A stretch of 64,000 bases of DNA from Nitrososphaeraceae archaeon (lineage in GTDB: Archaea > Thermoproteota > Nitrososphaeria > Nitrososphaerales > Nitrososphaeraceae). This document shows positions 28,717 through 64,000 of the stretch, in pieces. The translations under genes were made by a program, and so were the position numbers. How positions within the stretch are numbered: position 1 is the stretch's first letter; every line of letters begins with the position of its first letter. The notes beneath the pieces were generated by a model. The model saw only the letters and a program-made list of their open reading frames with translations, was not told the origin of the DNA and did not search any database. The stretch is taken from positions 17,828 to 81,827 of the forward strand of contig DATFEP010000040.1 of the NCBI GenBank assembly GCA_035250975.1, given 5' to 3'.

Positions 28717-29094
28717 ATGAAATTTCTTTTTTCCAAATTTGTTGTATTTACTTTTATTTCCTTCACAATAATATTATTTTCTAATATTCAGTTTTTTAAT
28801 ATTACAATATTTTCACAAGAAGATGATAAGAAAGGGTTTGGAGTACAAGAAAGAGAACGTGCTAGAATACATGCGGATAATGACTCAAAAGTTGATGATA
28901 AGAAAGGGTTTGGAGTACAAGAAAGAGAACGTGCTAGAATACATGCTGAGAACGATTCTCAAATTTTTAATAATGACTTTGCCGGTTTGATCATACTTGT
29001 AACAATAATTGTTATTGTTGCTGTAAGTTCATATGCATTATACAAAATATTGATAATCAGAAGAAAGTCCGATCATTCAAAACCAAAAAAATAA
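28717..29094 (+). CDS. Membrane-anchored protein with tandem DDKKGFGVQERERARIHA repeat
   Basis: N- and C-terminal hydrophobic helices; identical 53-bp repeat at 28822 and 28894. Confidence 0.7.
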   Translation: MKFLFSKFVVFTFISFTIILFSNIQFFNITIFSQEDDKKGFGVQERERARIHADNDSKVDDKKGFGVQERERARIHAENDSQIFNNDFAGLIILVTIIVIVAVSSYALYKILIIRRKSDHSKPKK

Positions 29095-33147: not shown

Positions 33148-33488
33148 TATAAAAACTAGTGAAAACTTGATCTATTATTTTAAAATTTCTATCTGTAATT
33201 ATGTGAATTTCAATACTAAATTCGGCTCTATTAATTAAGACAATTTCTGTTTCCTGTTTCTTCTTGTCGCTAAAAATTTTACAATATCATCAATAAAATT
33301 AACTTGTGAAAAGTTTTTTTTCTTGACTAAAAATCGCAAACATCAATATAATTGTGACAAAGTGATGCTTAAGAACTAATAAGAAGAACAAAAAAGAAAA
33401 GTTAAACTGTCAGTATAATAAATCATTATATGTATATTTTCGTATATACACTATCCTAAATTTCCAAGATTATCGATATTTAATATTC

Positions 33489-33950
33489 GTGATGATCATG
33501 ATTAGTTTATCTAATATTCATTTTTCTAATTGTAGCAGTAATGATAACAATAATACTAGCTTTGAAGAAAATAAGTATTTGGAGTTATCATCAAAAGACA
33601 CTGTGACTAAAAACATCACATTTGAAGAATTATGTCCAGTATGGTCTAAAAAAATATCTTTAGGGTTGGATAGAGTAGATAGATTCATGATTGAGCGAGA
33701 TTCAAAGTATTGCATTGTAGGTGAAGCGTGGAAATTTTCAGGAAGATATACTGGATATTATTTGGCACCTTTGATTCCGTTTGTTGGATGCTGGACTTGT
33801 ATAAATTACGCACGTAAATTTGCAAAGATTTCAAAGAATAAAAATATAAAAGAAGGTGTAACAAGAACCGATTTTGAACCTTTAATTGAATATTTTATAA
33901 ACCATTGGAATGAAAAACATACTAATAAAAATATAAAAAATAAAGAATAA
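33489..33950 (+). CDS. Hypothetical Cys/His-containing protein (CP..CIVGEAW..CWTC..HWNEKH), copy 1
   Basis: Near-identical paralog at 41940-42395. Confidence 0.8.
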   Translation: MMIMISLSNIHFSNCSSNDNNNTSFEENKYLELSSKDTVTKNITFEELCPVWSKKISLGLDRVDRFMIERDSKYCIVGEAWKFSGRYTGYYLAPLIPFVGCWTCINYARKFAKISKNKNIKEGVTRTDFEPLIEYFINHWNEKHTNKNIKNKE

Positions 33951-34440
33951 TACAAAGAAAATAAAAATAATGCTGTAGTAGGTTAATACATATCATAACT
34001 ACAATGATCATACCTAAAGAATGAATAAATGAATGTTTGAATGACCTTATTCTTATAGAAGCTTAGATACTATAATGGCAAAGTTCAAGAAATGATTATT
34101 TAAAATTTTTTTCTTAGAAATATTATAAAATATTTTTATGTTGATTCTTTGAGGATTACATTAATAGTTATACTCATTCACCCCAGCCCAATATTTTACT
34201 ACTAAAGTTAAAATGCCAAGAGAGAACATATAAGATAAATTTCAATGTACCATATTACAACAGATATTCATGAATAATAATTCCAATTCAATATTATGGA
34301 TCAATATTAGAATTTTTTGTATAAAAATTTACGGTAATAAATACGGATTATTTATGGTTAAATTTCTATAATATTATAAATTGATAACATTCTAAAAAAA
34401 AATTAAAAATATCAAAAAAAGTATTTATTATTTACAAACC

Positions 34441-34533
34441 ATGAAAAATAAGAATCTGCAAGACTTGTACAACGATGACGATGAAGCAATGGATAAAGTC
34501 TTAAATAATAAAAAAGTAGATCACCCGAAATAA
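34441..34533 (+). CDS. 30-aa microprotein MKNKNLQDLYNDDDEAMDKVLNNKKVDHPK
   Basis: Conserved in duplicate at 42955 with synonymous changes and an in-frame indel. Confidence 0.65.
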   Translation: MKNKNLQDLYNDDDEAMDKVLNNKKVDHPK

Positions 34534-41939: not shown

Positions 41940-42395
41940 ATGATGATAAGCGATAATTTATCTAATAATGTTTTTTCTCATGGTCGCAGTAATGATAACA
42001 ATAATGCTAACTTTGAAGAAAATAAGTATTTGGACTTATCATCAAAAGACACTGTGACTAAAAACATCGCATTTGAAGAATTATGTCCAGTATGGTCGAA
42101 AAAACTATCTTTAGGATTAGATAGAGTAGATAAATTCATGATTGACCGGGATTCAAAGTATTGCATTGTAGGTGAAGCGTGGAAATTTTCAGGAAGATAT
42201 ACTGGATATTATTTGGCACCTTTAATTCCGTTTGTTGGATGCTGGACTTGTATAAAGTACTCACGAAAATTTGCAAAGATTTCAAAGAATAAAAATATAA
42301 AAGAAGGTTTAACAAGAACCGATTTTGAACCTTTAATTGAATATTTTATAAACCACTGGAATGAAAAACATACAAATAAAAATATAAAAAAATAG
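41940..42395 (+). CDS. Hypothetical Cys/His-containing protein, copy 2
   Basis: Paralog of 33489-33950. Confidence 0.8.
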   Translation: MMISDNLSNNVFSHGRSNDNNNANFEENKYLDLSSKDTVTKNIAFEELCPVWSKKLSLGLDRVDKFMIDRDSKYCIVGEAWKFSGRYTGYYLAPLIPFVGCWTCIKYSRKFAKISKNKNIKEGLTRTDFEPLIEYFINHWNEKHTNKNIKK

Positions 42396-42954
42396 AAGAT
42401 AATACAAGATAAGAAAAAAAATATGATATATTGTGCTAATACACGTTATATCATATGTAACTATTATAGCCAAAGAATGAATAAATGAATGTTTGAATGA
42501 CCTTATTTTAAAGAATATTCAATTCCGGTAATGGGGAATGTACAAGAAAACATTCTTTTAATATTTTTTGTAACAAATATTCAGAACATTTTTTCACTTG
42601 ATCCATGGAGAATTGCGTTAATAGATAAACTTACCTCCTAGCCCAAGACGTTAGTACTAAAGTTAAAATGCATAGAGAGAATAGGAAATCGCTAAAAGGA
42701 GACTAGCATGAGAAAATTGTAAGCCCGTTGGGTGAAGGGCATTTTTGACCTTATCTTATGTATATCATATTATGGCAGATTTTCACGAATGATGGTTCCA
42801 AATCAAAATGATGAAAACAATATAACATTTTTCCTATGGAAATTTATGGTAACAAATATGGATTATTTCTAGCTAAGTTTCTAGAATGTTATAAAGTCAT
42901 AAGATTCTAAAAAAAATTAAAAATACTGAAAAAACTATTTATTATTTACATATC

Positions 42955-43050
42955 ATGAAAAATAACAATCTGGAAGAATTATACAATGATGACGATGAAG
43001 CAATAGATAAAGTGTTCTTAAGTAGAAAAAAAGTTGATCATCCAAAATAA
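42955..43050 (+). CDS. 31-aa microprotein MKNNNLEELYNDDDEAIDKVFLSRKKVDHPK
   Basis: Paralog of 34441-34533. Confidence 0.65.
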   Translation: MKNNNLEELYNDDDEAIDKVFLSRKKVDHPK

Positions 43051-49320: not shown

Positions 49321-49911
49321 GATATCGATAGATTTACCGTGAGTTTTGAGAATTTACTTGAATCATAGAGTCTTCTATACTGAAGGTTTAGACAGAATTA
49401 AATACACTACAATATTCTATTTTAATATATGATATTCTAAAATTTTGTCTATTATGATTAGTTATTGAGTTAATCATTTTCCAAATAGAACCCCATGTAG
49501 TAGGATTCTACGACCTTGTATTTACATTCATAAAAATAGTCTTTTTTACCACATCTTTGAATTTCATTAATAATTGACACAAAAAATAATTTGGTAATAA
49601 TAAAAATAAATTTTAGGCTATTTATTTGATTTTAGCTTTTGTTGATTGATAGAGACCATTTGTTTATAAAATGGTATTTTTTCTCTGAAGGATTTATATC
49701 AAAATTGTCCTTTTAATTGGATGAGTTAATACAATAAATTTCAATGGAATTAAATACGTTATACTCCCCGTAATAATTTAGCATTAAATATCTGGATTAA
49801 ATTATAATATTAATTCAATATATTACATGATTTGTATGTTGTACAAAGTAATTATCTCTATTCTCGAATGGAACAATAGATTGAAATTTATCTTACATTT
49901 TGGGATATAAA

Positions 49912-49935
49912 TATTTTTTCGGCGCCGAAAAAATA
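49912..49935. promoter_or_regulatory. Perfect 24-bp palindrome TATTTTTTCGGCGCCGAAAAAATA, probable operator
   Basis: Seen directly; TATAAAAA follows at 49946; second copy at 59246. Confidence 0.65.
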
Positions 49936-50231
49936 ATATTAAAAATATAAAAAAATATTTTCATACAATTATCAGCAGGATGGCTGGAATGGCTCAGATA
50001 TATGCCATCCTGTTGTCAGTTACCCATCTTTGGTGCAATGATATAGTTATTTGGTATTTGTATTATTTATGATATTTGATGGTAAAAAATGAAAAATATT
50101 TTTTGATCGTATTTCGTATTGATTGTCGATAATAATTCAGCCCCTATACGATCTATCTGTATATTGGTAGACGAGTTGCACTCTTTATTATGGATATATA
50201 TAATGCAATTTGTTTTTCAGCTAGTAAGAGC

Positions 50232-50336
50232 TTAACACCATCTACATGTCAGTCCAATGAAAGGCAGTGTTGCAATTAGAGATGTCCCTACAATCATTCC
50301 TATGATGCACATGTTGAATTTTGTTAACTTGAACAT
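50232..50336 (-). CDS. 34-aa hydrophobic peptide MFKLTKFNMCIIGMIVGTSLIATLPFIGLTCRWC
   Basis: High-identity block between the two copies runs exactly from ATG to stop. Confidence 0.8.
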   Translation of the reverse strand: MFKLTKFNMCIIGMIVGTSLIATLPFIGLTCRWC

Positions 50337-50854
50337 ACGACTTTATTCTCTTTAGAATAGAAAAAGATTTTCTACGTCTCAAATTGGAGTTCACAGTAAA
50401 GGAGAAACATAATTCTGAACATAACAGAATAAGGACCAATAAAGTTATAAGATACAATTTATCTTTAACTTTGAGGATTATATAAATATGTTCGCGTATA
50501 TTGTAAACTATAAATTTTCATTTAAAACATAAACTGAAAATATTATCGATAGGATTCACATTTGTTAGGTTTCATCTTTATATTCAGGTAGTAGGTTGGC
50601 AGTTGAATCGTCCATGTAGTAAGATTTACCTAAACTTGTATTTAGCTTTTATTATTAGTAACTTATTCTAAAATTATTCTCGGACTCAGAATATATAATT
50701 TTCTTCTAGTAGTATTGGTATGAATTATAAATTTGTTTACATATGAATTTGGCTTAATGTGATAATATTTTATAGTTTTATTATTGTTCTTTACATCAGA
50801 TAATAGCAATTTCTCCTTTTATGCAATCTATCAATTTCTATTTTCATTTTTCGC

Positions 50855-51625
50855 TCATCTTACATTTAAAATGTATGTAGTCGTATAGTTCCGTCCAACA
50901 GGATCATTATATTGATTTCCATTAATTTCCATTGTAGAAGTTGCATTGATATCATTTTTGTTTTTAATTCAAATATTCCGGCACTGAGAGGTTTAAGGAA
51001 TAACCAATTTCCATCTGCAACAGCCTGTGTCGTCTGAGAAGTTAAATTCAAAATATTATATTCGGGTAAAGTAAAATTGAAAACATCAGTCTGGACACGA
51101 TAATTTTCTAAATTTGGTACATGTACTTTATTAAGTGAAGCATTTACTCCAACTACAAGGTCTTGCATACGTTTAGCACATTCCCTTAGTTCTTCTTCAG
51201 TTTTTAATAATGGAAATTCTGCATAAGAGCATTCAGGATTTAATAGAGTTATAAGCAACGCGGTATTTTCAGGAATATCACATGTACGAGTAACTGGATG
51301 TTTATAAGCTAAAGTTAGAAACCAAACTGGTCCACTTTGATTTTCACTGCAATATTTTCCATTATGATCGTATGAGGGATTTCTATCCCAAGGAATAGAA
51401 TATGTCCATTGCCACCATTTCTCAGTCCAGTCTACATATGAAACATTAAAAGGCTTGGAATCTATGTCGTAAACTAAATTAGAAATATCAAGATTTGTAT
51501 TATTATTTACAAATGTAGTTAGTATTGGAATTCCTTCCACTAATTGACATTACATTGGCAGAGTATACCAGAAGTAAAATTAAAATCAAGGTAAAAAAAC
51601 TTGTTGTCAGCAAAAATTTTCTCAT
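50855..51625 (-). pseudogene. Frameshifted secreted protein (W..KWWQW..GPVWFL..VADG.W family)
   Basis: Signal peptide MRKFLLTTSFF at 51625 and C-terminal NYTTTYILNVR are each out of frame with the core ORF 50866-51540. Confidence 0.7.
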
Positions 51626-52120
51626 GTAAATGCCACATTGATTATATTTAATGAACTTTTCTCTGTCTGTCTCTCTTTCTCATATATAAATACCTTTTTT
51701 TGCTTTCTAGTATGGACCTATAGGTAAAGAAACTTCTTGTAATGGAGATTTTTTTATTCCTAGTATCATCGGTACAGAAGTCATGTAATTGAGTCCGGAG
51801 TATACCTAAACCGGTTCTAAAATAAGAATCTAATGTAAATATACTACTATCTTGTATTTGCATCTATTATTAGATACTTATTCTTTAAAATTATTCAATA
51901 TTAGATAGATATATTACGAATATGTAAATTATCATTTCTGTAATCAGACAAAAAAGGTAAAATTAGATAATTCGAACCTATATTAGATTAGATGGAAGAT
52001 AACGCGTGAATTACAATTTATGAACCCGAAAAAAGATAAAATAACCTAATTGTTATTTCTCTTTATTTTGCTAATATTATTTATCAAATATTTAAATAAA
52101 TTGATACAATCTAAAATATC

Positions 52121-52357
52121 TTAAGAGGTAGTTTTCACTTCTGTTATCCATTCACACTTGACACCGTGCTTATGATGATGATTTTCTACTGCTTCTCTAT
52201 TGGGTGCGTCAAGAAGGCAAAAGAACTTGTCTTCTTCTTTGTTATACATTATATTAAGATGGGTAATTCCGAATTCATCGACAGGAGACTGTTGCAATTT
52301 GCTTAAAGTTTCTTCCTCAAATCCTTTCAAGGAGTGAACATCAAGGAACTTGGGCAT
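52121..52357 (-). CDS. DUF4242 (SCO4226-like nickel-binding) protein
   Basis: MPKFLDVH, FCLLDAPNREAVENHH..HG, ITEV. Confidence 0.85.
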   Translation of the reverse strand: MPKFLDVHSLKGFEEETLSKLQQSPVDEFGITHLNIMYNKEEDKFFCLLDAPNREAVENHHHKHGVKCEWITEVKTTS

Positions 52358-52566
52358 AGACCTAAGTTCTTATAGTTTTGTATATATATTTGCTTTTTTG
52401 CAATTCATAGAATTGCTTGACTATAGCAGTATTACAGAATTAGAAAGCTTTGGTTTATAGAAATAAATACCTATAGGGGTGCGAAAATAAGAGTCTAATG
52501 TTATAGTACAAAGAGATACTTTTAAAATTTTCTTTAAATCTTAATAATGATTAAAGTTGAATTTTA

Positions 52567-53676
52567 CTAATTTAACAATTTTTTAACAGTACTTATCAAT
52601 AGCTTTCTATCAACGGGTTTTATCAATATTTGTTCCTTGGATAAACCTGGAACTATAGTTAATATTTCATCTGAAATACCTAAAACAGTTATAAAAAGAA
52701 TTTTAATTGTGGGATCGATTGATTTTATTTGCTGTTGTAATTGGAATCCATTCAAATCTTTCATTTTGATATCGAGGGTTACTAGTAGATCATTAAAATT
52801 TGGAAGATCTTTAATAAAATTCAATGCGTTGAAGGGATTGGTAAAAGAAGTTATTTCATAACCATTATCCTTTAAAAATGATTCATAAGTAAATAGTATA
52901 TCTGGATCATCATCGACTAAAATTATTCTTTTGTTATTGTTTCTTTGAGGAAAAAACAAATCTTTTTCACTTTCAGTTTCTATAAAGTTGTCAGTAGAGG
53001 AACCTGACATTTTCTTCCTGAGAAAGTATGTAGTACTACTATTATCAAGATACAATTCATTAATTTTTTTTATACTATATGTAGGGTATCCAATTGTTTC
53101 GGTTATCTTACATTCACCATTATTTATAAAATTATAATTGTTAACAATATTAGAAAACGATTTTAAAATTCTATAAAAATTATCCCCAATAATTATTTGA
53201 TTTGCAATAGATAGCGATGAATTTATCTTTGAACAGCGGTTTACAGTTGACCCGAATAAATCTATCTGGCTATAATCACCAACTAAAGCTAAATCTAAAA
53301 CACCAAAATCCATGCTAATTCTATAGCTGAATGGGGGAAGATGCTGCTTGGACAATTCCTGATTAACAGCATAGCGGGAATCTAAGATTTTCAAACCACA
53401 TTCAATAACTTCTCTAAAAGCTTCTTCGTTTTTATTATCAGATACCTTTGGAAAATATAATAATAAACAATCACCAATATTTTTAATAACTTTCCCTCCA
53501 TAATTTTTAACTATTTTCGATATTGAATTCATAAATTTCGAATAATAGATTCTAATATGTTCTAAATTGTCCATTGTAATGGTATTTTTAGTCGAATCTA
53601 CCAAATCAATAAAAACTACACAACTCTTTATTGAATCACCAGAAAATCTTATTTCTTTTGAAGAAAAATTTTTCAT
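52567..53676 (-). CDS. Class III adenylate/guanylate cyclase with C-terminal receiver domain
   Basis: FIDLVDST, KNIGDC, DLFGSTVN; REC: ILVDDD, LDIKM..LNG, FIT, KP. Confidence 0.88.
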   Translation of the reverse strand: MKNFSSKEIRFSGDSIKSCVVFIDLVDSTKNTITMDNLEHIRIYYSKFMNSISKIVKNYGGKVIKNIGDCLLLYFPKVSDNKNEEAFREVIECGLKILDSRYAVNQELSKQHLPPFSYRISMDFGVLDLALVGDYSQIDLFGSTVNRCSKINSSLSIANQIIIGDNFYRILKSFSNIVNNYNFINNGECKITETIGYPTYSIKKINELYLDNSSTTYFLRKKMSGSSTDNFIETESEKDLFFPQRNNNKRIILVDDDPDILFTYESFLKDNGYEITSFTNPFNALNFIKDLPNFNDLLVTLDIKMKDLNGFQLQQQIKSIDPTIKILFITVLGISDEILTIVPGLSKEQILIKPVDRKLLISTVKKLLN

Positions 53677-53702
53677 TTAGTATTGCCCACGAAACTAAAC
53701 AA

Positions 53703-54224
53703 CTAATAATTAGTAGTTGTAAGATTTTTGAATAGGTCATTATAGTATTTTTGTGCAATTTCCATAGATTTGTTAACGGTTTCTTTATATACAAATACAC
53801 AGTCATTTATTCTTCGTGTAGCACTTATTGTATTATTTGTAATATTTTGGTTGGTATTATTATAAACATATGTATATCCTTGTGGATAAATAAATTTATT
53901 CCAATAAGATTTACCTATAAATTTGGAAAATACTGATTGATAAGTAATAAGAATATTTTTTTTTAATTCTACATAGTTGTTAGAGATTGATTGGATTGTA
54001 TTAATATTTTTTTGTTGATATGTGTTTGCTGTATCTAAACTTTTTTCAAGACTGTCATTATTTGTTTTTTGATATTCATTGATAGTACTAATAATTTTAT
54101 TTGTTGCATCTGGAATAATTAATGTTATATTTTCTAACAGTTCTCTTTGTTTGTCTAAAAAATTCTCTGTATCTTCTTTTATAATGTCATTTTGTTTTTT
54201 ATTTTCGTCTTTTAAGTTTGTCAT
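53703..54224 (-). CDS. Asn/Thr/Gln-rich amphipathic helical protein of unknown function
   Basis: ORF composition; related to fragment at 40385. Confidence 0.65.
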   Translation of the reverse strand: MTNLKDENKKQNDIIKEDTENFLDKQRELLENITLIIPDATNKIISTINEYQKTNNDSLEKSLDTANTYQQKNINTIQSISNNYVELKKNILITYQSVFSKFIGKSYWNKFIYPQGYTYVYNNTNQNITNNTISATRRINDCVFVYKETVNKSMEIAQKYYNDLFKNLTTTNY

Positions 54225-54513
54225 ATTAGTAAGTAAATTTATAATAGTTTTTGCACCTTATTAAACTATAATTAAAAGTAAAAATTATGCAAAATTATTG
54301 TAAAATATATATAAAATAGATATTCTTTATTAGATCTTATATTACCAACAATTTACTTATTTATTTTATCAAAAAAATCGAAATCATCTTTTTTCTTCAT
54401 TCACGATAAGAGAGGGTTTTAGATGACAACTTACATATATCCATACTGGGGTATAAGGTAGAATTTAGTTAAATTAAATATAACATTTTATGATGTAATA
54501 TAATAATTAACAA

Positions 54514-55068
54514 ATGACTCATTTATCTTTCCCAAACTTATCAGGTAAATTAGTAAATTTAAGAGAACTTTCAATGGAAGATGCCACAATTATAGTAAGT
54601 CTTATGAGTCATGATATATCTAAATATCTTTATGAAGTTTCACATCCTTATAAAATAGATGATGCTTTAAAATTTATTAAATCTAGTTGTGATGATTTTA
54701 GGTTACATAAATCAATAATCTTTGCTATATCCTATAAAAACAAATTAGAACCAATTCAGTTACTAGCGGGAACTATAGGTATTAAAGATATTGACTATGT
54801 TAATAAAAAAGCAAATATAGGATATTGGATTGGTAAACAATACCAAGGCAAAGGCTTGGCAACAGAATGTGTTAAGCTAGTTGTTAAATATGGATTTGAC
54901 ATATTAAAATTGATAGCAATTTCGGCTTATGTCTTTCCTGAAAATAAACCATCTATAAGAGTTTTGGAAAAAAATAAGTTTGTAAAGACAGAAGTGGTAA
55001 AGGAATACCATCCTCTGTCAAATAGGTACAGAAATTCTTTAGTTTATACAATAAAAAATAAGAAATGA
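54514..55068 (+). CDS. RimJ/RimL-family GNAT acetyltransferase
   Basis: ANIGYWIGKQYQGKGLATE, NKPSIRVLEK. Confidence 0.92.
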   Translation: MTHLSFPNLSGKLVNLRELSMEDATIIVSLMSHDISKYLYEVSHPYKIDDALKFIKSSCDDFRLHKSIIFAISYKNKLEPIQLLAGTIGIKDIDYVNKKANIGYWIGKQYQGKGLATECVKLVVKYGFDILKLIAISAYVFPENKPSIRVLEKNKFVKTEVVKEYHPLSNRYRNSLVYTIKNKK

Positions 55069-55077
55069 TGAATTGAA

Positions 55078-56084
55078 TGCTGTGTTGCACGACTCACTAC
55101 TGCTAACACATTTAGCTAACCTATTATAGTCATATTATGTGATGAACTGGAGAAATTGCAACGAATCTCTTGTCAAACGTGGGGAGGTATTACTTGATTT
55201 TGATGTTATAGATAACTGGGATAATGAACTAGAGGAGATGAATAATAAGAAAGGTAGAAAATTCGTATATCCATATTCATTTATCAAGTTATTGGGATAC
55301 ATGAGAGATACTTTCACTTACCCTACAGACAAACTGAAGGAGTAGTAAGAGAACATGCTTCAAACACACTAACATCTATTCCAGATTATAGTAACATTAG
55401 CAGAAGAATAAATAGACTGGATATCAAGATTTCTGATGATATAACCAAATCTAGTGTACATGATGATAATTTTGTAATAACAATTGATCCTACCGGTATA
55501 AAGGTATCTAACAGGGGCGAATGGATTAGACATAAATGGAATGTAAAAAGAGGATATCTAAAGATACATGTAGCAGTTGACATAAAAAAGAAGAGAATTC
55601 TATCATTAGATGTTACTAGTGAAGAAGTACATAATGTAAAAGCTCTTCCAAAATTGGTTGATTATATAGCAATAAAACAGAATAAGGTAATAGATACTGC
55701 CATCATGGATGGTTCCTATGATAGTAACAAGATCTTTCAGTTTCTATCATTTAAAGGCATACACCCAGCAATAAAGGTAAGAAAGAATTCTAGATGCAGA
55801 AAGTCCAATCATTACCTTAGAAACAAGACTGTAAAGATCCAGAAGAATGATTTGCAAGAATGGAAAGATAGCGTATGCTATGGACAAAGATGGATGGTAG
55901 AGACTGTTTTTTCATGTATCAAGAGAATTTTTGGAGAATATGTTACTGCTATCAGGTTAGAGAACATGATAAGAGAGATAATGTTGAAAGCATCGTTGTA
56001 TAACTGGTTTCAAAGTATAACTTACATAATTATCAATTATATAATAATGAGAAAGATTGTTTAAACGAGTTATGCAACAAACCA
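55078..56084 (+). mobile_element. IS5-family (IS903-group) element with frameshifted transposase
   Basis: Imperfect TIRs GCTGTGTTGCACGACTC / GAGTTATGCAACAAACC; MNWRNCNESLVKRG, then frameshift near 55308 into YFHLPYRQTEG..IDPTGIK..GEW..DGSYDS..YGQRWMVETVFS; no TSD seen. Confidence 0.88.
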
Positions 56085-56773
56085 TTAATATCTTTATCCT
56101 TACAGGAATACGTCAATCTGAAAAAGTATTTGATTCTTAAAAGGCAATCATTCCAGGTTTTAATCCAACATTTATCTGGATCTTAATACTTTTTATTTTG
56201 GTGTCCAAATAAAAAAATATTTTACTTTTTTCATTAATTTGATAAAAGGAAATTGAGGACCAGGGAATTTACTATAGGCTACGATTGCTTTCAGATTATT
56301 ATTTGATATCTTTCAGAAGTTCCAATTCTTTCATAAACTCATAGAATTGTAATAATAATTGTTTATTTTCTAGATTAAAAACATCTATTTCAATATTGTT
56401 GATGTTGTGGATAGCTTAACTGTTATTTTTCCTTTAGTCTCCCTTTTTTCTATATTTTATTGTCGATACTTATATAGTAACGCTAAAGCATAACGCGCCC
56501 GTGCGGAGTTGAACAGTCGCTGCTTCCGTGTTCAGTAACAGTTCAGTTAGTAGCAGTAATGCGCTAAATTATTTAGTTCAATATATCTCTAAATATTGTC
56601 TTTTATAAATAAAAATAAACCAGTTATCCTAATTTCAACTACCGACTTCGTATTGGCAACTTGGGTCGCCTTTCAGGAACGAAGAAAGTGGACATTTATC
56701 GACCACTTTCTACTCCGGTATTACTGAAAATTCTGATTTTAGATCCCAGCATATCGCTAGAGTAATAGATTAA

Positions 56774-56977
56774 TTAATTAAAATAATCTTCTACTATATG
56801 ACCGCAATCACGACACTCTAGCCAGTCAAAAGAGTCATGTGGTAATTCACCATCAATTAATTCTTCTTTCTTGTAAAGGCGTGGACCCAATTGAACAGAA
56901 ATTCCTACTTCCAGGCAACGAGGACACCAACTCGTATTAGGGATATTTTCTGTATTGGTTTGATCTAACATGGGCAA
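56774..56977 (-). CDS. Small Zn-ribbon protein (CPRC...CRDC)
   Basis: Two CxxC motifs. Confidence 0.65.
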   Translation of the reverse strand: MPMLDQTNTENIPNTSWCPRCLEVGISVQLGPRLYKKEELIDGELPHDSFDWLECRDCGHIVEDYFN

Positions 56978-57125
56978 GGCATACCACTAGATTAATTAAG
57001 TTATATATGTGTAATGATATAATTTTCAATTTCATTATACTATAACATTAGATATATAGAAACTCAAGACTCTTAATCTTAATCTTAATCTTACTCCACA
57101 GCAATAATAAGTAATAGACCTAAGA

Positions 57126-57254
57126 TCATATAATTATAATTATGTTCATTGCACCTATTGCGGTCAATGATAATCCTGTTGCAAAAACTGCTAGAGCTAC
57201 TGAAATGTAATATTCTTCTGTATGAAAAAATAACATAAAAAAAAAGAAACTCAT
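57126..57254 (-). pseudogene. MFS transporter internal fragment
   Basis: MLFFHTEEYYISVALAVFATGLSLTAIGAMNIIIII* resembles DHA2-type MFS TM segments. Confidence 0.45.
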
Positions 57255-57523
57255 AAGGCCTTATAACTTCATTTATTTATAAAGCAACAGTAAACGATGA
57301 GTAACAATCAATGCTCTGTCTTGCATATACACACTAAATATTAATATCATCTGTTGGAATAACTAATAGACTCAAATTAACGGAGTCCTATTATATATGT
57401 ATTTTCATTATATCCCTGTTCAAATTTTATTATCTTAATTACATCAAATTTATTTTCTATAGCGATAATAGAATATTTTCTTGTTAGAAAGAAATATAAT
57501 AGAAGCAATAAGCTATTAACACG

Positions 57524-58162
57524 ATGAAATATTTTTTATTTCTTCTTTTTGTTGTTGTTATTGTTTTATCGTTAATAATATCAAATATACCATCATCATT
57601 TGCACAATCAAATTCAACAACTAATGATTATTATAACCCGTTTCTTGGAATTAAATTACAATACCCCAATCCTTGGGAGAAAGTAAGCCCATCATCATTT
57701 GATAGTAATACATGTAACTTATTTGGATGTATTATTGCATTCAACTTAAAAGAGAATAATGAAAACACAGATTCATATTTTTCAATAAGATCTCATGATT
57801 TGGCTAAAATTAAAGATGAATGTAAATGTTCTAATTCAATTGATTTTATGGTATGGAAATATGATAACTTGAACAATATTCCTGGATTCTTATTCCTTGA
57901 TGATAAAGAGATAACAATAGCTGGCAATCACTCTGCATGGGTAATGGAATACCTATCTTTATCAAATAATGGATTTAATTATAATTATGATGTATTAGTG
58001 AAGTATTTTGATAAATTCTATGATGTCAGATTTGAATCTCCTTCTAAAGAATATTACATGGAACATATTGGAGATATAAAAAATATTCTTAATTCTATTG
58101 AATTTGTACCAGTAAATCAAGATTCACAGAAACCATCATTCTTGATTCAAGAATATAAGTAA
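57524..58162 (+). CDS. Secreted PsbP-like fold protein
   Basis: Signal peptide, Y.NP.LGIKLQYP..W, ITIAGN..A, I.NILNSIEF. Confidence 0.7.
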   Translation: MKYFLFLLFVVVIVLSLIISNIPSSFAQSNSTTNDYYNPFLGIKLQYPNPWEKVSPSSFDSNTCNLFGCIIAFNLKENNENTDSYFSIRSHDLAKIKDECKCSNSIDFMVWKYDNLNNIPGFLFLDDKEITIAGNHSAWVMEYLSLSNNGFNYNYDVLVKYFDKFYDVRFESPSKEYYMEHIGDIKNILNSIEFVPVNQDSQKPSFLIQEYK

Positions 58163-58340
58163 AATAATAAATTAAGAATAAATAATTCTCATAAATCATG
58201 CTGGAACTCTTGCCATTCATGATATACATTAGAAGCTTTCATCTGGAGTGCAATCTTCCATATAGTAGGGTTCTACTGTCTTGTACTTAGATCTTAGTGT
58301 TAAAATTTTGTTTTGGGTTTACAGCTAAATTATAAATAAA

Positions 58341-58956
58341 GTGAAGAATCAAACAATACCGAATTTGTTAGCTTTCAAGGAGATTAATTACCATGACAAC
58401 AAAGTATTGAAACAAGCTTTAGATATTTATTTGACTCATTTTCCTCTTCAAGAAACAAGACCCTTGGAAAAAACTATTTCAATGATACAAAAAGATGACA
58501 ATTATCGTATTCTTGTAGCATTACAACATGAAACAGTAATAGGTATTTCTTTATTTTATATATTCCCTTATTAAAATTTGGATTATTAGATTACATGACA
58601 ATTATAAAGGAATTTCAAGGTAGAGGAATAGGAGAAAACTTTTTAATTTTACATTCAACATATTTAGTTCAAGAATTTCTGATGGGATTGGATTTTTGAT
58701 GGAGATCCAAAAAGATAATGTCCAAAACATTGAAGAAAATAAGATTCGAAAAAACAGAATTAAATTTTATATAAATTTGGGTTGCAAATTTCTTAATGGT
58801 ATCAACTATTTACCTCCATCGCAAATTGGTGGACAACCAGAAGAGATGTATTTGATAATTAAACCAATTAAAAATATAAAATCATTATCAAAATATGATG
58901 TTTTCAAAATTGTAAATGCTATTTATTCAAAAATTTACTGTTACAAATTTTCCTAA
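58341..58956 (+). pseudogene. Frameshifted GNAT acetyltransferase
   Basis: Three frames: IYLTHFP.QE; GLLDYMTIIKEFQGRGIG; RIKFY.NLG..YLPP. Confidence 0.75.
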
Positions 58957-59245
58957 ATGTAAATCAATTCATTTACTTTTCCTACCATGATGAAAACAGG
59001 TAAATTCTCTACAATAATCACAAAAACTACATGATGGACAGACAGGGTTAGATAAACTTGGTAAGTATTCAGTATAACAATTCATACATTTCATTATTAT
59101 TCTTTTTTTATACTAGAGAAAAATGATTGTGCAATATAACAGATAATGATTCAAAATTACAGAAGATGATGTTTTATGTAGATTGAAATCTTGTAGATGG
59201 ATATTAAACATAGAATTTTTTAGTTTTAAGGAAAAAACAACCATA

Positions 59246-59267
59246 ATTTTTTCGGCGCCGAAAAAAT
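59246..59267. promoter_or_regulatory. Perfect 22-bp palindrome ATTTTTTCGGCGCCGAAAAAAT, copy 2
   Basis: Seen directly; TATAAAAA begins at 59267. Confidence 0.65.
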
Positions 59268-59546
59268 ATAAAAATGGAATATTTATGGTATTATCAAATA
59301 AGATGGAAAGATATGGCTCAGATTCTACCCATCCTATTATCATTACATCATTTTTCTTTGTGTAATGATATAATTAATATGGTATTTGTGTTATTTATGA
59401 TATTTGGTAGTAAAATATTTTTATCATCTTCACTATGCATAATAATTATCTCAAGTAAAATCTATCGGGATATCGGTAGACCTATTCAGCTCTTGTTTAT
59501 TTGGGTATACATCGTATGAATTTGTCTCTTCTTAGTTAGTACGGTT

Positions 59547-59651
59547 CTAACACCATCTACATGTCAGTCCAATGAAAGGGAGTGTTGCAATTAGAGATGT
59601 CCCTACAATCATTCCTATGACGCACATGTTGAATTTTGTTAACTTAAACAT
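59547..59651 (-). CDS. 34-aa hydrophobic peptide MFKLTKFNMCVIGMIVGTSLIATLPFIGLTCRWC
   Basis: Differs from copy 1 only by TTC/TTT, CTG/CTC, I/V and TAA/TAG. Confidence 0.8.
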   Translation of the reverse strand: MFKLTKFNMCVIGMIVGTSLIATLPFIGLTCRWC

Positions 59652-60165
59652 ACTTCTTTGTTCATTTTAGAATACAAAAAGATTTTCCACGTCTGAAAAC
59701 AGAGATGGCTGTAAAGAAGAAACATAATTCTGAACTTACAAAAAAGAAGACCAATAGAGTTATAAGGTACTATTTTTTGTAACTTAAGAGTAGGGTTCAT
59801 CTGTATATTCAGCATGTTTCTCTGAAGTAAAATCTTCTACATAATACGGTTCTATTATATTTTATTAACAATATTGTTTGTATGGATATTCACTTCGTCG
59901 AGAGTAATACCGTTAGCGGTTCTAAAATAAGAGTCTAATGTGTATAGTAATGAAAGTGATGCTTAGGATTTTCATTTTTGTAATTGCTTTTTAAATATTT
60001 ATTATTACAAATTAATTGTTATTCTAAATAAATTTAATAACATCTAAAATTTAAAAGATTTTACTATTATTTATTAAGATGCTTACTAAAATTATTAATG
60101 TGATAAAACAATATGATGTTGAATTAAATGTACTATAAAAAATACGAGAAAACTTAAATAAAATA

Positions 60166-60936
60166 ATGCTAATCTTCTTCATGAGCAAAATTCTAACACA
60201 AAGAATAAGCTCTAGAATGACAAATTATAGAATTGTCTCTACAATAATTCTAACTACCGTAGTAATTACTGGTATTATAATCTTTCAGTCTTTGCAGGTA
60301 GAAGCTCAAAAGGAAACAGCCACAAACATTCCTGATGCAATAAAAGTTACTAAATGTCACGTAGTTAATCCTCCAACTGACCCTGTAGATATGAACACTA
60401 TTATTTTCAAGGATATTGCGAAAACTGTTCATGTTGAAAAAGAAATTTTCAAATGTATAACAAAGAATGGTGCTCCAGTAATAGCAATGGTAAGTCTTTT
60501 TACAGAACTGATTGAAGATTTGAGAACTCAATCTACTTTGAATAAAACTGTTGAAACTGTTACATGTGTCAAAGGTTATAATGGTACTGTGTCCTATTGT
60601 GACTCAAAGCAAATTCCTATTTCAAGACAATATCCTTTTGCAGTTAGTTGTGACCCTTCGAATTTAAGAATTTTAAATATCATGTCTCCAATAGAAATGG
60701 AGACTGTAGTAAGTTCTAATGGCATTTCAAAGACTATAGATGCTGAAAAAGAGGCATTTTTGTGTACTTATAAACAAAATAAACCTACTCAAATATTAGA
60801 CGTGATGTTATTTACAGAAATATTTGAAAAAGTTTCAAGTGGAACAGTAATTAAAAAGAATGTTGAATCGATTTCCTGCTTAAAAGATATAGATACTGCA
60901 AAGGTTTTAAAGTGCAATACCAAAAAACATATGTAG
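60166..60936 (+). CDS. Secreted Cys-containing protein with two internal repeats
   Basis: Signal/TM segment; P..M.T.....KT...EKE.F.C...LFTE..E....K.VE...C.K occurs twice. Confidence 0.8.
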   Translation: MLIFFMSKILTQRISSRMTNYRIVSTIILTTVVITGIIIFQSLQVEAQKETATNIPDAIKVTKCHVVNPPTDPVDMNTIIFKDIAKTVHVEKEIFKCITKNGAPVIAMVSLFTELIEDLRTQSTLNKTVETVTCVKGYNGTVSYCDSKQIPISRQYPFAVSCDPSNLRILNIMSPIEMETVVSSNGISKTIDAEKEAFLCTYKQNKPTQILDVMLFTEIFEKVSSGTVIKKNVESISCLKDIDTAKVLKCNTKKHM

Positions 60937-61162
60937 ATTGCAAATAATCTAATAATATTTTTCTTTTGATTAATATTAATAGCTACTAATTTTTATAATT
61001 TCATTATTTTATATTTAGAGCTATACAAATCTATATTATAAAATATTAAACCTATTTTAAAATAGTTTTAAGGTAAATCAATTTGAACGAAATTTGCGAA
61101 GGAGGGGGTAATACCGATAGCGGTGCGAAAATAAGAGTCTAATGTAGATACCACTATCTTGT

Positions 61163-61735
61163 GGATATTCTCTTGGTGCGACAGTAGCTCAACAGCTTAC
61201 AGTTAGTCATCCAGATAAGGTTAACAGACTCATACTTGTTGGTGCGTCATGTGGTGGGATAGAGGGTATACCTCCAAGTCCTCAACTTGTAGAATTTATG
61301 TCTGGTATAGTAAACAAATCCCTAAATAATATTCCCGTTACTGAGGAAGAGATAAAAGAGATCATGTCTTCCTCATTAGGTTCAGCATGGGTGAAATTGT
61401 ATCCCAATTCCCTTGAAAACATTCCAACAGCAGAAGATGTGTTTTCTGTTATCTCTCCTAATACTATGAAGCAACAATTTAGAATAGGAGAAGGTTGGAT
61501 GGCAACTAACTGCGATGGTATTTGTGATGAGCTTACAAAAAAAACTCTCCTACTTTGATCATAACTGGAACCATGATAATAATGTACCATCAGGAAATTC
61601 TTTAATTATTGCGGAAAAATTCCTGGAGCTTGGCTTGTACAGATTAAAGATGGTTGCCATGCATTATTCGCATAATATCCATCTATAGTCAATAGAGTAT
61701 TAGAAACATTTCTTGACTACAGCAAGTCCTAGTTG
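61163..61735 (+). pseudogene. 5'-truncated, frameshifted alpha/beta hydrolase
   Basis: GYSLG nucleophile elbow at 61163, HPDKVNRLILVG, later IAEKIPGAWLVQIKDGCH..*YP. Confidence 0.75.
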
Positions 61736-63540: not shown

Positions 63541-64000
63541 AAACTAAATATGAAAATCAAAATAAAATTATATATATAAAAATAAAGTAAATTTTAAATA
63601 CTAAATTAAAAAGAGGATTTGACTATTATATTTTATCAACAATATTGTTTGTATTTATATTCACTTCGTCGGGAGCAATACCGATAGCGGTTCTAAAATA
63701 AGAGTCTACTATAGAGATACTACTACCTTGTATTTAGCTTTTATTATCAGTAACTTATTTTTGTTAAGTTCCTTTTTTATTCGAAAAGATAATGAATGAT
63801 GAAAAATTACATGTTTTATTAGAAAGGAAACAAGAAGAATAATAACTTTTCTTAGTTAAAGTCTAATATAAAGGACGGTAAGAATTATAATAGAAATTTA
63901 CATCTTTAGTTTAGCATATAATAAACTAATTATTTTAGATATTTATAATAGAATTAAGAATAACGATAATAATGTTTACAACAAGAGCATTGTCATCATC

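Follow-up and report, generated by a model that had tools for sequence, protein, structure and literature searches.

The 64,000-nucleotide stretch of Nitrososphaeraceae DNA analysed here (hereafter the window; G000:C23:17828-81827, where G000 is the window's own assembly) carries two minus-strand copies of a gene for a membrane microprotein, which is shorter than the usual gene-calling lengths. As judged from comparison across genomes, these open reading frames (ORFs) constitute a real protein-coding gene family under strong purifying selection, and we regard their coding status as settled, direct detection of the peptide aside. The same comparisons show the microprotein to be confined to one archaeal family (relatives with a name are named Nitrososphaeraceae), where it occurs in many genera with no convincing member outside, and they show that its ORFs are exchanged or homogenised between paralogous cassettes within genomes by gene conversion. 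The genes lie beside those of receiver (REC) domain proteins more often than gene density would predict, and a tentative role of the microprotein as a membrane accessory of a phosphorelay is weighed below against several alternatives.

Gene copies and coding status

Copies A and B, in cassettes termed winA and winB, each consist of an ATG, 33 further codons and a stop codon; the product of copy A is MFKLTKFNMCIIGMIVGTSLIATLPFIGLTCRWC, and that of copy B is the same with I11V. Both ORFs had been proposed in an earlier annotation made from the letters of the window (the original prediction), and they are found where it placed them, translating as MFKLTKFNMC(I/V)IGMIVGTSLIATLPFIGLTCRWC and separated by the four differences in 105 nt that it reported (TTC/TTT, ATC/GTC, CTG/CTC and TAA/TAG). 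Its description of diverged, indel-bearing flanks also holds, as identity between the copies is 79.5% upstream (-120 to -1) and 68.1% from the stop codon to the palindrome that ends the cassette versus 96.2% in the ORF; the cassette homology extends over ~570 nt, and outside the ORF it is diverged with many indels. The gene is indeed present twice in the window, but this count understated its abundance, since a third copy with 94% amino acid identity lies at G000:C26:15290-15391, 244 nt from the contig end, which brings the assembly to three copies.

A six-frame search for the microprotein covered 201 genomes of the window's family, and dN/dS was calculated over 32 distinct nucleotide sequences; the sequences aligned and counted in this work include rows of the unpublished genomes G077 and G035, and G168 enters the tallies, with no claim resting on these alone. 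Matches at E<=1 were identified in 115 of the 201 genomes and 16 of the 18 genera, the weakest of them being untrustworthy. None of the 81 places listed at E<1e-10 has an internal stop, and there are one to five matches per genome. Conservation begins at Met1 in 32 loci (the codon is GTG in two), the preceding residues being unrelated, and third codon positions are the most variable (entropy of 0.51, 0.23 and 0.97 at the three positions among the 32 distinct sequences). The median pairwise dN/dS is 0.146 in the ORF frame versus 0.967 and 1.742 in the shifted frames. A homologue search with dN/dS was the check proposed along with the original prediction, and its outcome, ~80 open copies in many genera with a median dN/dS of 0.15, is the one that was anticipated. 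The boundaries of conservation likewise follow the ORF. Paralogues of other genera (in G060, G036 and G013) are homologous from a point 3-77 nt ahead of the ATG as far as +115 to +121, the ORF being 117 nt long. In four metagenome runs, the match between the window and contigs from related organisms begins at 50233, where the stop codon has its last base.

The possibility that the conserved 105 nt is a non-coding RNA or DNA element that is open merely by chance is already close to refuted. Such an element would hardly vary most at third codon positions, show a dN/dS of 0.146 in the coding frame only, remain open in ~80 copies or be bounded by a start and a stop codon, and Rfam yielded no match at E<=1 over positions 49500-60300. 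What speaks for it is that the very 5' codons are constrained at the nucleotide level beyond coding. In 44 distinct sequences from many genera, the synonymous sites of codons 2-7 are nearly fixed against the AT bias of the genome, with AAA for K6 in 44 of 44, TTC for F7 in 39 of 40 and TTC for F2 in 36 of 41; at F26, TTT occurs 30 times and TTC 14 times. This constraint suggests that the 5' end of the mRNA carries an overlapping signal at the nucleotide level. No RNA data set was listed as carrying the cassette. A run labelled as metatranscriptomic (X20) contains contig pieces that cover the ORF and the block at 50033-50102; the run is probably DNA, and these pieces have no bearing on transcription.

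Predicted structure and membrane topology

Members of the family range from 34 to 40 amino acids, and 12 residues are invariant in 30 CRWC-type sequences from many genera (M1, K6, C10, G13, G17, P25, F26, G28, L29, C31, W33 and C34). AlphaFold2, supplied with a 40-row alignment, returned one helix at residues 6-32 with a mean pLDDT of 80, and the best 19-residue hydrophobic window has a mean Kyte-Doolittle value of 2.37. Mean net charge is +2.15 on the N-terminal side of the helix and +0.9 on the C-terminal side, the former exceeding the latter in 39 of 40 sequences. A single transmembrane (TM) helix is thus predicted, and because of the charge excess it is placed N-in/C-out, with the basic N-terminus (K3, K6) inside, C31-x-W-C34 outside and C10 near the inner interface; the negative EEHW tails of distant relatives agree with this orientation.

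The alignment, the AlphaFold2 model and the charges support the one TM helix, basic N-terminus and terminal CxxC that had been described for the two window copies, but the exact CRWC end is peculiar to the window's genus, g1. Outside g1, the CRWC forms add three to five residues (TAGG, TTGS, TGAG and similar), and more distant relatives keep the N-terminus and helix (K-x-T-K-x-x-x-C-x-x-G-M-x-x-G...LP) and end in YRPL/YRPF, EYSRY or EEHW. The N-terminus and helix are thus constant across subfamilies whose outside tails differ, so that a function common to all of them probably lies in the helix and the cytoplasmic end; the CxxC would then be a subfamily-specific input.

The best hit of a PDB profile search was sub-threshold (E 0.3 over 17 residues) and aligned residues 14-30 with helix 2 of ATP synthase subunit c. 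The two share the pattern M-x-x-G-x-x-L-x-x-x-LP-x-x-G, and the position of the ion-binding Glu is occupied by S, G or A in the microprotein. Membership in the subunit c family was rejected, as the E value is insignificant and the ion-binding carboxylate is missing, and the resemblance probably reflects only a shared helix-packing pattern.

Taxonomic distribution

A profile search of 5.8 billion clustered proteins retrieved 48 clusters at E<=0.01. All of them are unnamed or called 'hypothetical protein', apart from one evident misnomer; the named sources are Nitrososphaeraceae, and no Pfam domain is present. An HMMER scan of 1.84 billion representatives gave just 30 matches at E<=0.001. The longer database entries are read-through, frameshifted or N-terminally over-extended calls rather than fusions. 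In a class-wide sample, the microprotein was matched in 15 of 39 genomes of the window's family and in 2 of 261 genomes of the other 14 families, both of the latter matches being marginal (E 0.004 and 0.009) and situated inside frames of 269-360 amino acids. Several genera of the family yielded no CRWC form and have tail variants only or nothing.

Viral contigs gave 148 pattern matches, none of which was confirmed as encoding the microprotein. No family in Pfam, NCBIfam, PADLOC or PHROGs matched it at E<=10, and the PDB profile search returned nothing significant and no matching chain. The best feature score in the ESM Atlas was 0.81, to unnamed clusters only. Full-text term searches found no paper on this microprotein family, which leaves its absence from print unproven; in the libraries searched and the papers found, neither the family nor its lineage restriction, concerted evolution or REC linkage is described.

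Concerted evolution of paralogous copies

In a cassette tree dominated by the flanks, winA groups with G078_59 (95/95), winB with C26, G048 and G078_60 (100/100), and G078_63 with G078_61 (95/92). As the flanks thus group the cassettes by locus, the duplication must predate these species. The ORFs follow a different pattern: those of winA and winB have 2 differences in the 96 positions compared, versus 10 between winA and G078_59, and G078_60 differs from G078_63 at 5 positions versus 21 between G078_63 and G078_61. Since the ORFs cluster by genome and the flanks by locus, the near-identity of copies within a genome is largely a product of gene conversion. It follows that four differences between diverged flanks cannot by themselves prove purifying selection, so that the argument by which the original prediction reached this conclusion fails; the conclusion itself stands on the cross-genus statistics. 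Several copies have decayed, including G078_61 (start codon lost, C34Y), G078_62 (damaged start), the frameshifted G009:C110 and several frameshifted database entries.

The homogenisation of copies would be expected if all of them fed one assembly, and the microprotein could then serve an abundant membrane complex of respiration, ATP synthesis, copper handling or ammonia oxidation as a small accessory or assembly subunit, with several copies for dosage or differential regulation. The helix is strongly conserved and carries a Pro and the residues G13-x-x-x-G17, an instance of the classical GxxxG helix-packing motif, which would suit specific helix-helix contacts; the outside CxxC could bind copper in these copper-dependent ammonia oxidisers, and the sub-threshold likeness to subunit c at residues 14-30 (E 0.3) points the same way. 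We nevertheless consider such a subunit unlikely, as at the loci examined the gene never shares an operon with a known complex, no PDB chain matches, the genes sit in variable islands and have decayed copies, and the CRWC form, unlike a core subunit, was not found in several genera of the family.

Promoter region

A proximal box, GAAAATCTTTTTCTATTCTAAA, occupies -36 to -15 and is identical in both window copies, with no occurrence expected by chance. It consists of a purine-rich run followed by a T-rich, TATA-like element and is a putative promoter. Among the g1 loci tabulated, a TCTTTTTCTA-type box starts at -31/-32 in 8 of 11, and the other three carry one-base variants. The conserved box of other genera reads TGAG-N-A-NNN-TAGTAATA, with TAGTAATA starting between -29 and -35 in 21 of 32 loci, and an AAATAA near -10 is common to g1 and other genera. 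The best-conserved box of g1 and its counterpart elsewhere are both situated at about -37 to -22. TATA-like hexamers before 854 long ORFs of G000 peak at -35 to -26 (104 and 90 per 5-nt bin versus ~55 elsewhere), and no strong Shine-Dalgarno signal was detected upstream of the same ORFs. Each gene probably has its own promoter directly upstream and is expressed from a leaderless or short-leader mRNA, to judge from these positions.

A second, distal box was the one highlighted in the original prediction, as a CTTATAAC..TATTGGTC element ~110 nt upstream kept in both copies. It is indeed conserved, at -115 to -98; a role as the main promoter, with the 85-nt leader that had been proposed, is not supported, since the better-conserved box lies at about -37 to -22, the region in which such hexamers are most frequent across the genome. 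The distal box is kept in most g1 cassettes (with variable distance and altered form in G146, G112 and G154) and is absent from the loci of other genera; it could act as a second promoter or as a regulatory site upstream of the main one.

Downstream elements in genus g1

Between 12 and 15 cassettes of g1 align over their full length and share the distal box, the proximal box, the ORF, a 3' block, a hairpin and a terminal palindrome. The 8-bp consensus stem of the hairpin has compensatory changes at three of its eight pairs among 12 cassettes. The 20-nt perfect palindrome is more widespread: its 16-nt core occurs 13 times in G000, a genome of 30.6% GC, where it accounts for 13 of the 15 CGGCGCCG octamers. 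All copies are intergenic, several lie 15-190 nt past stop codons, and three accompany a microprotein gene. It follows the microprotein gene at 11 of 11 g1 loci and at none of 21 loci of other genera (one of them without downstream sequence), and the hairpin loop and the 3' block are likewise missing from the 21 loci outside g1. The palindrome is probably a general, bidirectional, terminator-like 3'-end signal of g1 or, alternatively, a protein-binding site, and the g1 transcript probably ends at it, ~300 nt downstream. Its interpretation as part of a mobile cassette specific to the peptide was rejected, because 10 of the 13 genomic copies have neither the microprotein gene nor other shared homology.

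The layout of the g1 cassette recalls type I toxin-antitoxin modules, and the microprotein could be a toxin that damages or depolarises the membrane and is held in check by an antisense or 3' hairpin RNA, its multiple cassettes being semi-selfish. Its size, single TM helix and basic N-terminus would fit a toxin, as would the occurrence of one to five stand-alone copies in each genome, in variable regions that contain transposase remnants, the ~570-nt g1 module with conserved non-coding parts including a covarying hairpin, and the decayed copies; codons 2-7, with their constrained synonymous positions, could be where an RNA pairs. However, complementarity between the same-strand 3' RNA and the mRNA is unremarkable in four cassettes (z of -0.96, -0.94, -2.56 and +0.63), and pairing of the downstream hairpin RNA with the microprotein mRNA is accordingly not supported; an unconserved cis-antisense RNA may nonetheless be encoded at the locus. 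In genera other than g1, the downstream sequence shows no conservation, and homology between paralogues extends no further than the stop codon. Twelve invariant residues over 30 sequences and a dN/dS of 0.15 on every copy also argue against a toxin, PADLOC gave no match, and linkage to REC genes would be unexpected. With only a short promoter region and the ORF conserved and no pairing partner found, the toxin loses support beyond g1, and we regard it as doubtful.

Linkage to receiver-domain genes

When the ORFs from all loci were clustered, no gene proved to be universally linked to the microprotein, and one recurrent family was found, that of REC domain proteins. Loci were chosen without regard to their neighbours, and REC genes were counted within about 1.5 kb. 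They were present at 4 of 29 loci representing one best microprotein match per genome (75,324 nt examined), at 2 of 8 loci of the distant tail-variant relatives (32,188 nt) and at 6 of 20 further microprotein loci of the six-frame search (56,678 nt), making 12 of 57 loci over 164,190 nt, with about nine arrangements in five genera and mostly one REC subfamily. Four genomes of 1.8-2.5 Mb have 12, 23, 23 and 25 REC genes and one of 3.5 Mb has 95, and on this density ~1-2 REC neighbours, at most ~4.5, would be expected versus the 12 observed.

The arrangements differ between genera. In g10 the microprotein gene is followed on the same strand by the REC gene after a gap of 18-25 nt, and this unit has been duplicated at least three times; in one of the duplicates (G009:C110) the peptide has decayed and the REC gene still follows. 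The two genes are convergent in g17 and g12, and divergent in g1, where they lie ~330-430 nt apart in at least six species. In g14 the REC gene precedes the microprotein relative (G014), a split REC gene ending 75 nt before this distant relative. The G014 gene (L069:1433-1904, plus strand) is split over two frames, its N-terminal half being stopped and its C-terminal half lying in another frame; possible explanations are a frameshift site, an error in the sequence or decay to a pseudogene. The neighbours in g1, g10 and g17 belong to one stand-alone REC subfamily with 49-52% identity across genera and long invariant blocks. Of its 32 top-tier matches (>=205 bits, 201 genomes), 11 lie within ~0.6 kb of a microprotein gene, a ranking that is circular in that the REC profile was built from microprotein neighbours. 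Exclusive co-occurrence of this subfamily with the microprotein at the genus level (E<=1e-50) was rejected, as g2 has the REC protein in 16 of 34 genomes without the CRWC peptide.

In the window itself, a gene for a fusion of an adenylate/guanylate cyclase with a receiver domain lies 2.2 kb upstream of copy A. Its orthologue in G078 is 290 nt from the orthologous microprotein copy, and a paralogue in G012 is ~500 nt away; the REC part is 34% identical to the microprotein-linked subfamily. This cyclase-REC protein is a possible, weakly linked signalling partner of copy A. As a specific partner in G000 it is a weak candidate and was set aside, since the genome holds three full-length paralogues and one of them is near a microprotein gene. 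The paralogue at G000:C20:3793-4869 is 92% identical and is followed by the same D3 element arrangement, and that at G000:C31:11422-12531 (47%) is 0.8 kb from another copy of the palindrome.

The bacterial protein MgrB inhibits the sensor kinase PhoQ in enterobacteria, and SafA is a similar small membrane regulator of histidine kinases. Because REC linkage, the sole contextual evidence on function, combines here with an MgrB-like architecture, the best-supported reading is that the microprotein may serve a phosphorelay as a membrane accessory in the manner of MgrB, with a switch based on thiols or a metal, although we advance it only tentatively. The microprotein would use its helix and N-terminus to dock onto either a signalling protein in the membrane or a stand-alone receiver, and the outside cysteine pair would act as a redox or metal, possibly copper, switch; the proposal is made because the gene repeatedly adjoins one REC subfamily or, in the clade of G000, the cyclase-receiver fusion. 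A more far-reaching version, which appears rather improbable as a whole, would have the microprotein and a dedicated single-domain receiver form an undescribed signalling module of soil ammonia-oxidising archaea, in which the 34-40-aa peptide with its outside CxxC is the redox/copper-sensing input, or the membrane docking site, of a phosphorelay; the copies would co-assemble through the GxxxG helix, and this would be the reason why gene conversion keeps their genes identical. Among the functional guesses that accompanied the original prediction, the membrane toxin has lost ground outside g1, and signalling or redox/metal binding has gained some through the REC neighbours.

Several observations weigh against the phosphorelay accessory. 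No REC gene lies within about 1.5 kb at 45 of the 57 sampled loci. In G000, a REC gene is near copy A only (the cyclase-REC gene, with one gene between), and copy B has none; the neighbourhood of the copy on C26 is cut by the contig end. Neither G000 nor the genomes closest to it (G048, G078, G012 and G026) have a match to the tight REC subfamily at E<=1e-50, and no histidine kinase adjoins a microprotein gene at the loci examined. Counts from related genomes lack independence, since a single orthologous g1 locus supplies 5 of the 12 REC-positive cases, and REC and microprotein genes may both favour the same variable islands. The cytoplasmic part of the microprotein is just ~8 residues long, and, as the outside tail varies (CRWC, YRPL, EEHW), the CxxC cannot be a universal functional core. 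Moreover, MgrB is non-homologous, the microprotein having no Pfam or NCBIfam match at E<=10, so that the likeness is at most one of working in a similar manner; MgrB is also single-copy, whereas the microprotein is multi-copy and subject to gene conversion.

A secreted signalling or antimicrobial precursor had been put forward in the original prediction, and the neighbouring REC genes would also accommodate a precursor of an exported or processed signal or antimicrobial peptide that is sensed through a phosphorelay. Peptide-pheromone genes adjoin two-component genes in Gram-positive bacteria, the small ORF is directly upstream of the receiver gene in g10, and the C-terminal Cys pair could close a disulfide loop. 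We judge this very unlikely, as the peptide is conserved over its whole length instead of showing a conserved leader and a variable core, its middle 19-20 residues make up a full-length hydrophobic TM segment, and clustering of all loci revealed no recurrent protease, exporter, modifying enzyme, immunity gene or kinase beside the gene. The narrower candidate of a RiPP or bacteriocin precursor was dismissed on the same full-length conservation and the lack of a recurrent enzyme or transporter neighbour among all clustered loci.

Genomic neighbourhood and other repeats

The features discussed are collected in Table 1. The genes of the window region comprise a DDE transposase fragment, orphan secreted or membrane ORFs, GNAT, wHTH and SCO4226-like genes and the cyclase-REC gene; the transposase fragment, a full-length relative of which lies near a microprotein copy in G078, marks the region as a variable island.

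Table 1. Positions of the microprotein genes, their associated elements and neighbouring features (window coordinates unless a locus is named)
Feature	Position	Strand	Basis or remark
Microprotein gene, copy A	50232..50336	-	34 codons + TAA; translation, family alignment, dN/dS
Microprotein gene, copy B	59547..59651	-	34 codons + TAG; I11V; translation
Near-fixed codons 2-7	50316-50333 and 59631-59648	-	Synonymous-site tally
Copy A proximal promoter-like box, GAAAATC-TTTTTCTA-TTCTAAA (-36 to -15)	50351..50372	-	Exact match in both copies
Copy B proximal promoter-like box	59666..59687	-	Exact match in both copies
Copy A distal box, CTTATAACTTTATTGGTC (-115 to -98)	50434..50451	-	0 matches expected by chance
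Copy B distal box	59749..59766	-	0 matches expected by chance
Copy A conserved 3' block (ACCAAATATCATAAATAAYACAAATACC...)	50049..50090	-	Repeat D12, alignments; g1-specific
Copy B conserved 3' block	59377..59418	-	Repeat D12, alignments
Copy A 3' hairpin, 9-bp stem, loop with ATCTGAGCCAT	49976..50012	-	Fold -14.1 kcal/mol, z -2.9
Copy B 3' hairpin	59299..59336	-	Fold -10.4 kcal/mol, z -1.4; covariation
Palindrome TTTTTTCGGCGCCGAAAAAA ending cassette A	49914..49933	.	Cassette homology stops at palindrome
Palindrome ending cassette B	59247..59266	.	Sequence match
Adenylate/guanylate cyclase + receiver gene	52567..53676	-	Pfam PF00211 + PF00072
DDE transposase fragment	55654-56064	+	Pfam; PF01609 profile positions 73-200 only
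~75-nt repeat	51802-51859, 52467-52524, 59907-59964, 61111-61168, 63678-63735	+	
~97-aa protein	L095:4587-4880	+	Also L055, L084, L087

A protein of ~97 amino acids (MRFIIRAKIPTEAGNK...) without a Pfam match is encoded ~0.2-1.1 kb from the microprotein gene in four genomes of four genera. The region further contains a ~75-nt repeat that is not part of the microprotein cassette, with the core ATACCGATAGCGGT-N-AAAATAAGAGTCTAATGT and an inverted repeat ACCG-NNNN-CGGT. G000 has 18 copies of it, which cluster on a few contigs, among them both that bear the microprotein gene; all eight copies on these two contigs are opposite in strand to the microprotein genes, and one is beside a tRNA-like sequence. 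The D3 repeat was rejected as a part of the microprotein system, its distance varying from 256 nt to 2.5 kb. Elsewhere in the window, a second dispersed duplication (33445-34515 versus 41941-43029) comprises D1, D5, D9 and D10, which are 84-93% identical and ~8.45-8.51 kb apart, and two tandem 72-nt units of 90% identity (D6) at 28813-28956 probably lie inside a coding region.

Significance and comparison with known systems

Small membrane proteins are largely invisible to annotation, and little is known of them in ammonia-oxidising archaea, the drivers of soil nitrification. The family described here offers a clean case of an unnamed, lineage-restricted and strongly selected set of genes that is multi-copy, evolves in concert and has a repeated tie to REC genes. 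The inputs and outputs of REC signalling in ammonia-oxidising archaea are essentially unknown. If the REC link were functional, the microprotein would provide a testable entry to archaeal two-component-type signalling, possibly with surface redox or copper sensing; if the peptide were toxic, it would be a candidate RNA-controlled membrane toxin in Archaea. On either reading, the gene deserves to be added to the annotations of its archaeal family.

Small single-pass membrane proteins with regulatory or toxic roles are, as a kind, already known from bacteria. The closest relatives of the microprotein are entries named 'hypothetical protein' in Nitrososphaeraceae metagenome-assembled genomes, which belong to the same family and are unnamed and without a Pfam or NCBIfam model. 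We know of no established archaeal example of a type I toxin-antitoxin system. The bacterial type I toxins (Hok, Ldr, Ibs and TisB) resemble the microprotein in having fewer than 60 amino acids, one hydrophobic helix and several dispersed copies per genome, in stand-alone cassettes with conserved non-coding flanks (for the microprotein, in g1 only) and in frequent decayed copies, the general features of such modules being taken from an excerpt of PMC2887945. They differ from it in that sequence analysis of the microprotein cassettes identified no antitoxin RNA, that outside g1 its conserved unit is a short promoter region and the ORF only, that its sequence is maintained throughout an archaeal family, the Cys, Gly and Pro residues being invariant, and that its genes are linked to REC genes.

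MgrB, as described in an excerpt of PMC8404706, is 47 amino acids long. Two lysines near its N-terminus are important, its TM helix mediates binding to the kinase and includes a conserved Cys, two periplasmic cysteines are essential, and a Trp lies in the C-terminal part. The microprotein differs from the protein so described in its outside part, which is 5-9 residues long with a CxxC, as opposed to ~22 residues with cysteines 11 apart in MgrB. It is also archaeal, its neighbours are receiver proteins and not a kinase, and the likeness derives from predicted architecture and gene linkage. Within these bounds, both proteins would be single-pass, with a short basic cytoplasmic N-terminus containing two lysines, a functionally specific TM helix that includes a conserved Cys, two conserved cysteines and a Trp outside (by prediction for the microprotein) and a tie to two-component signalling, which is here the REC neighbours. 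The predicted topology of the microprotein is that of MgrB, N-in with conserved outside cysteines, C31 and C34 being invariant in the 30 CRWC-type sequences.

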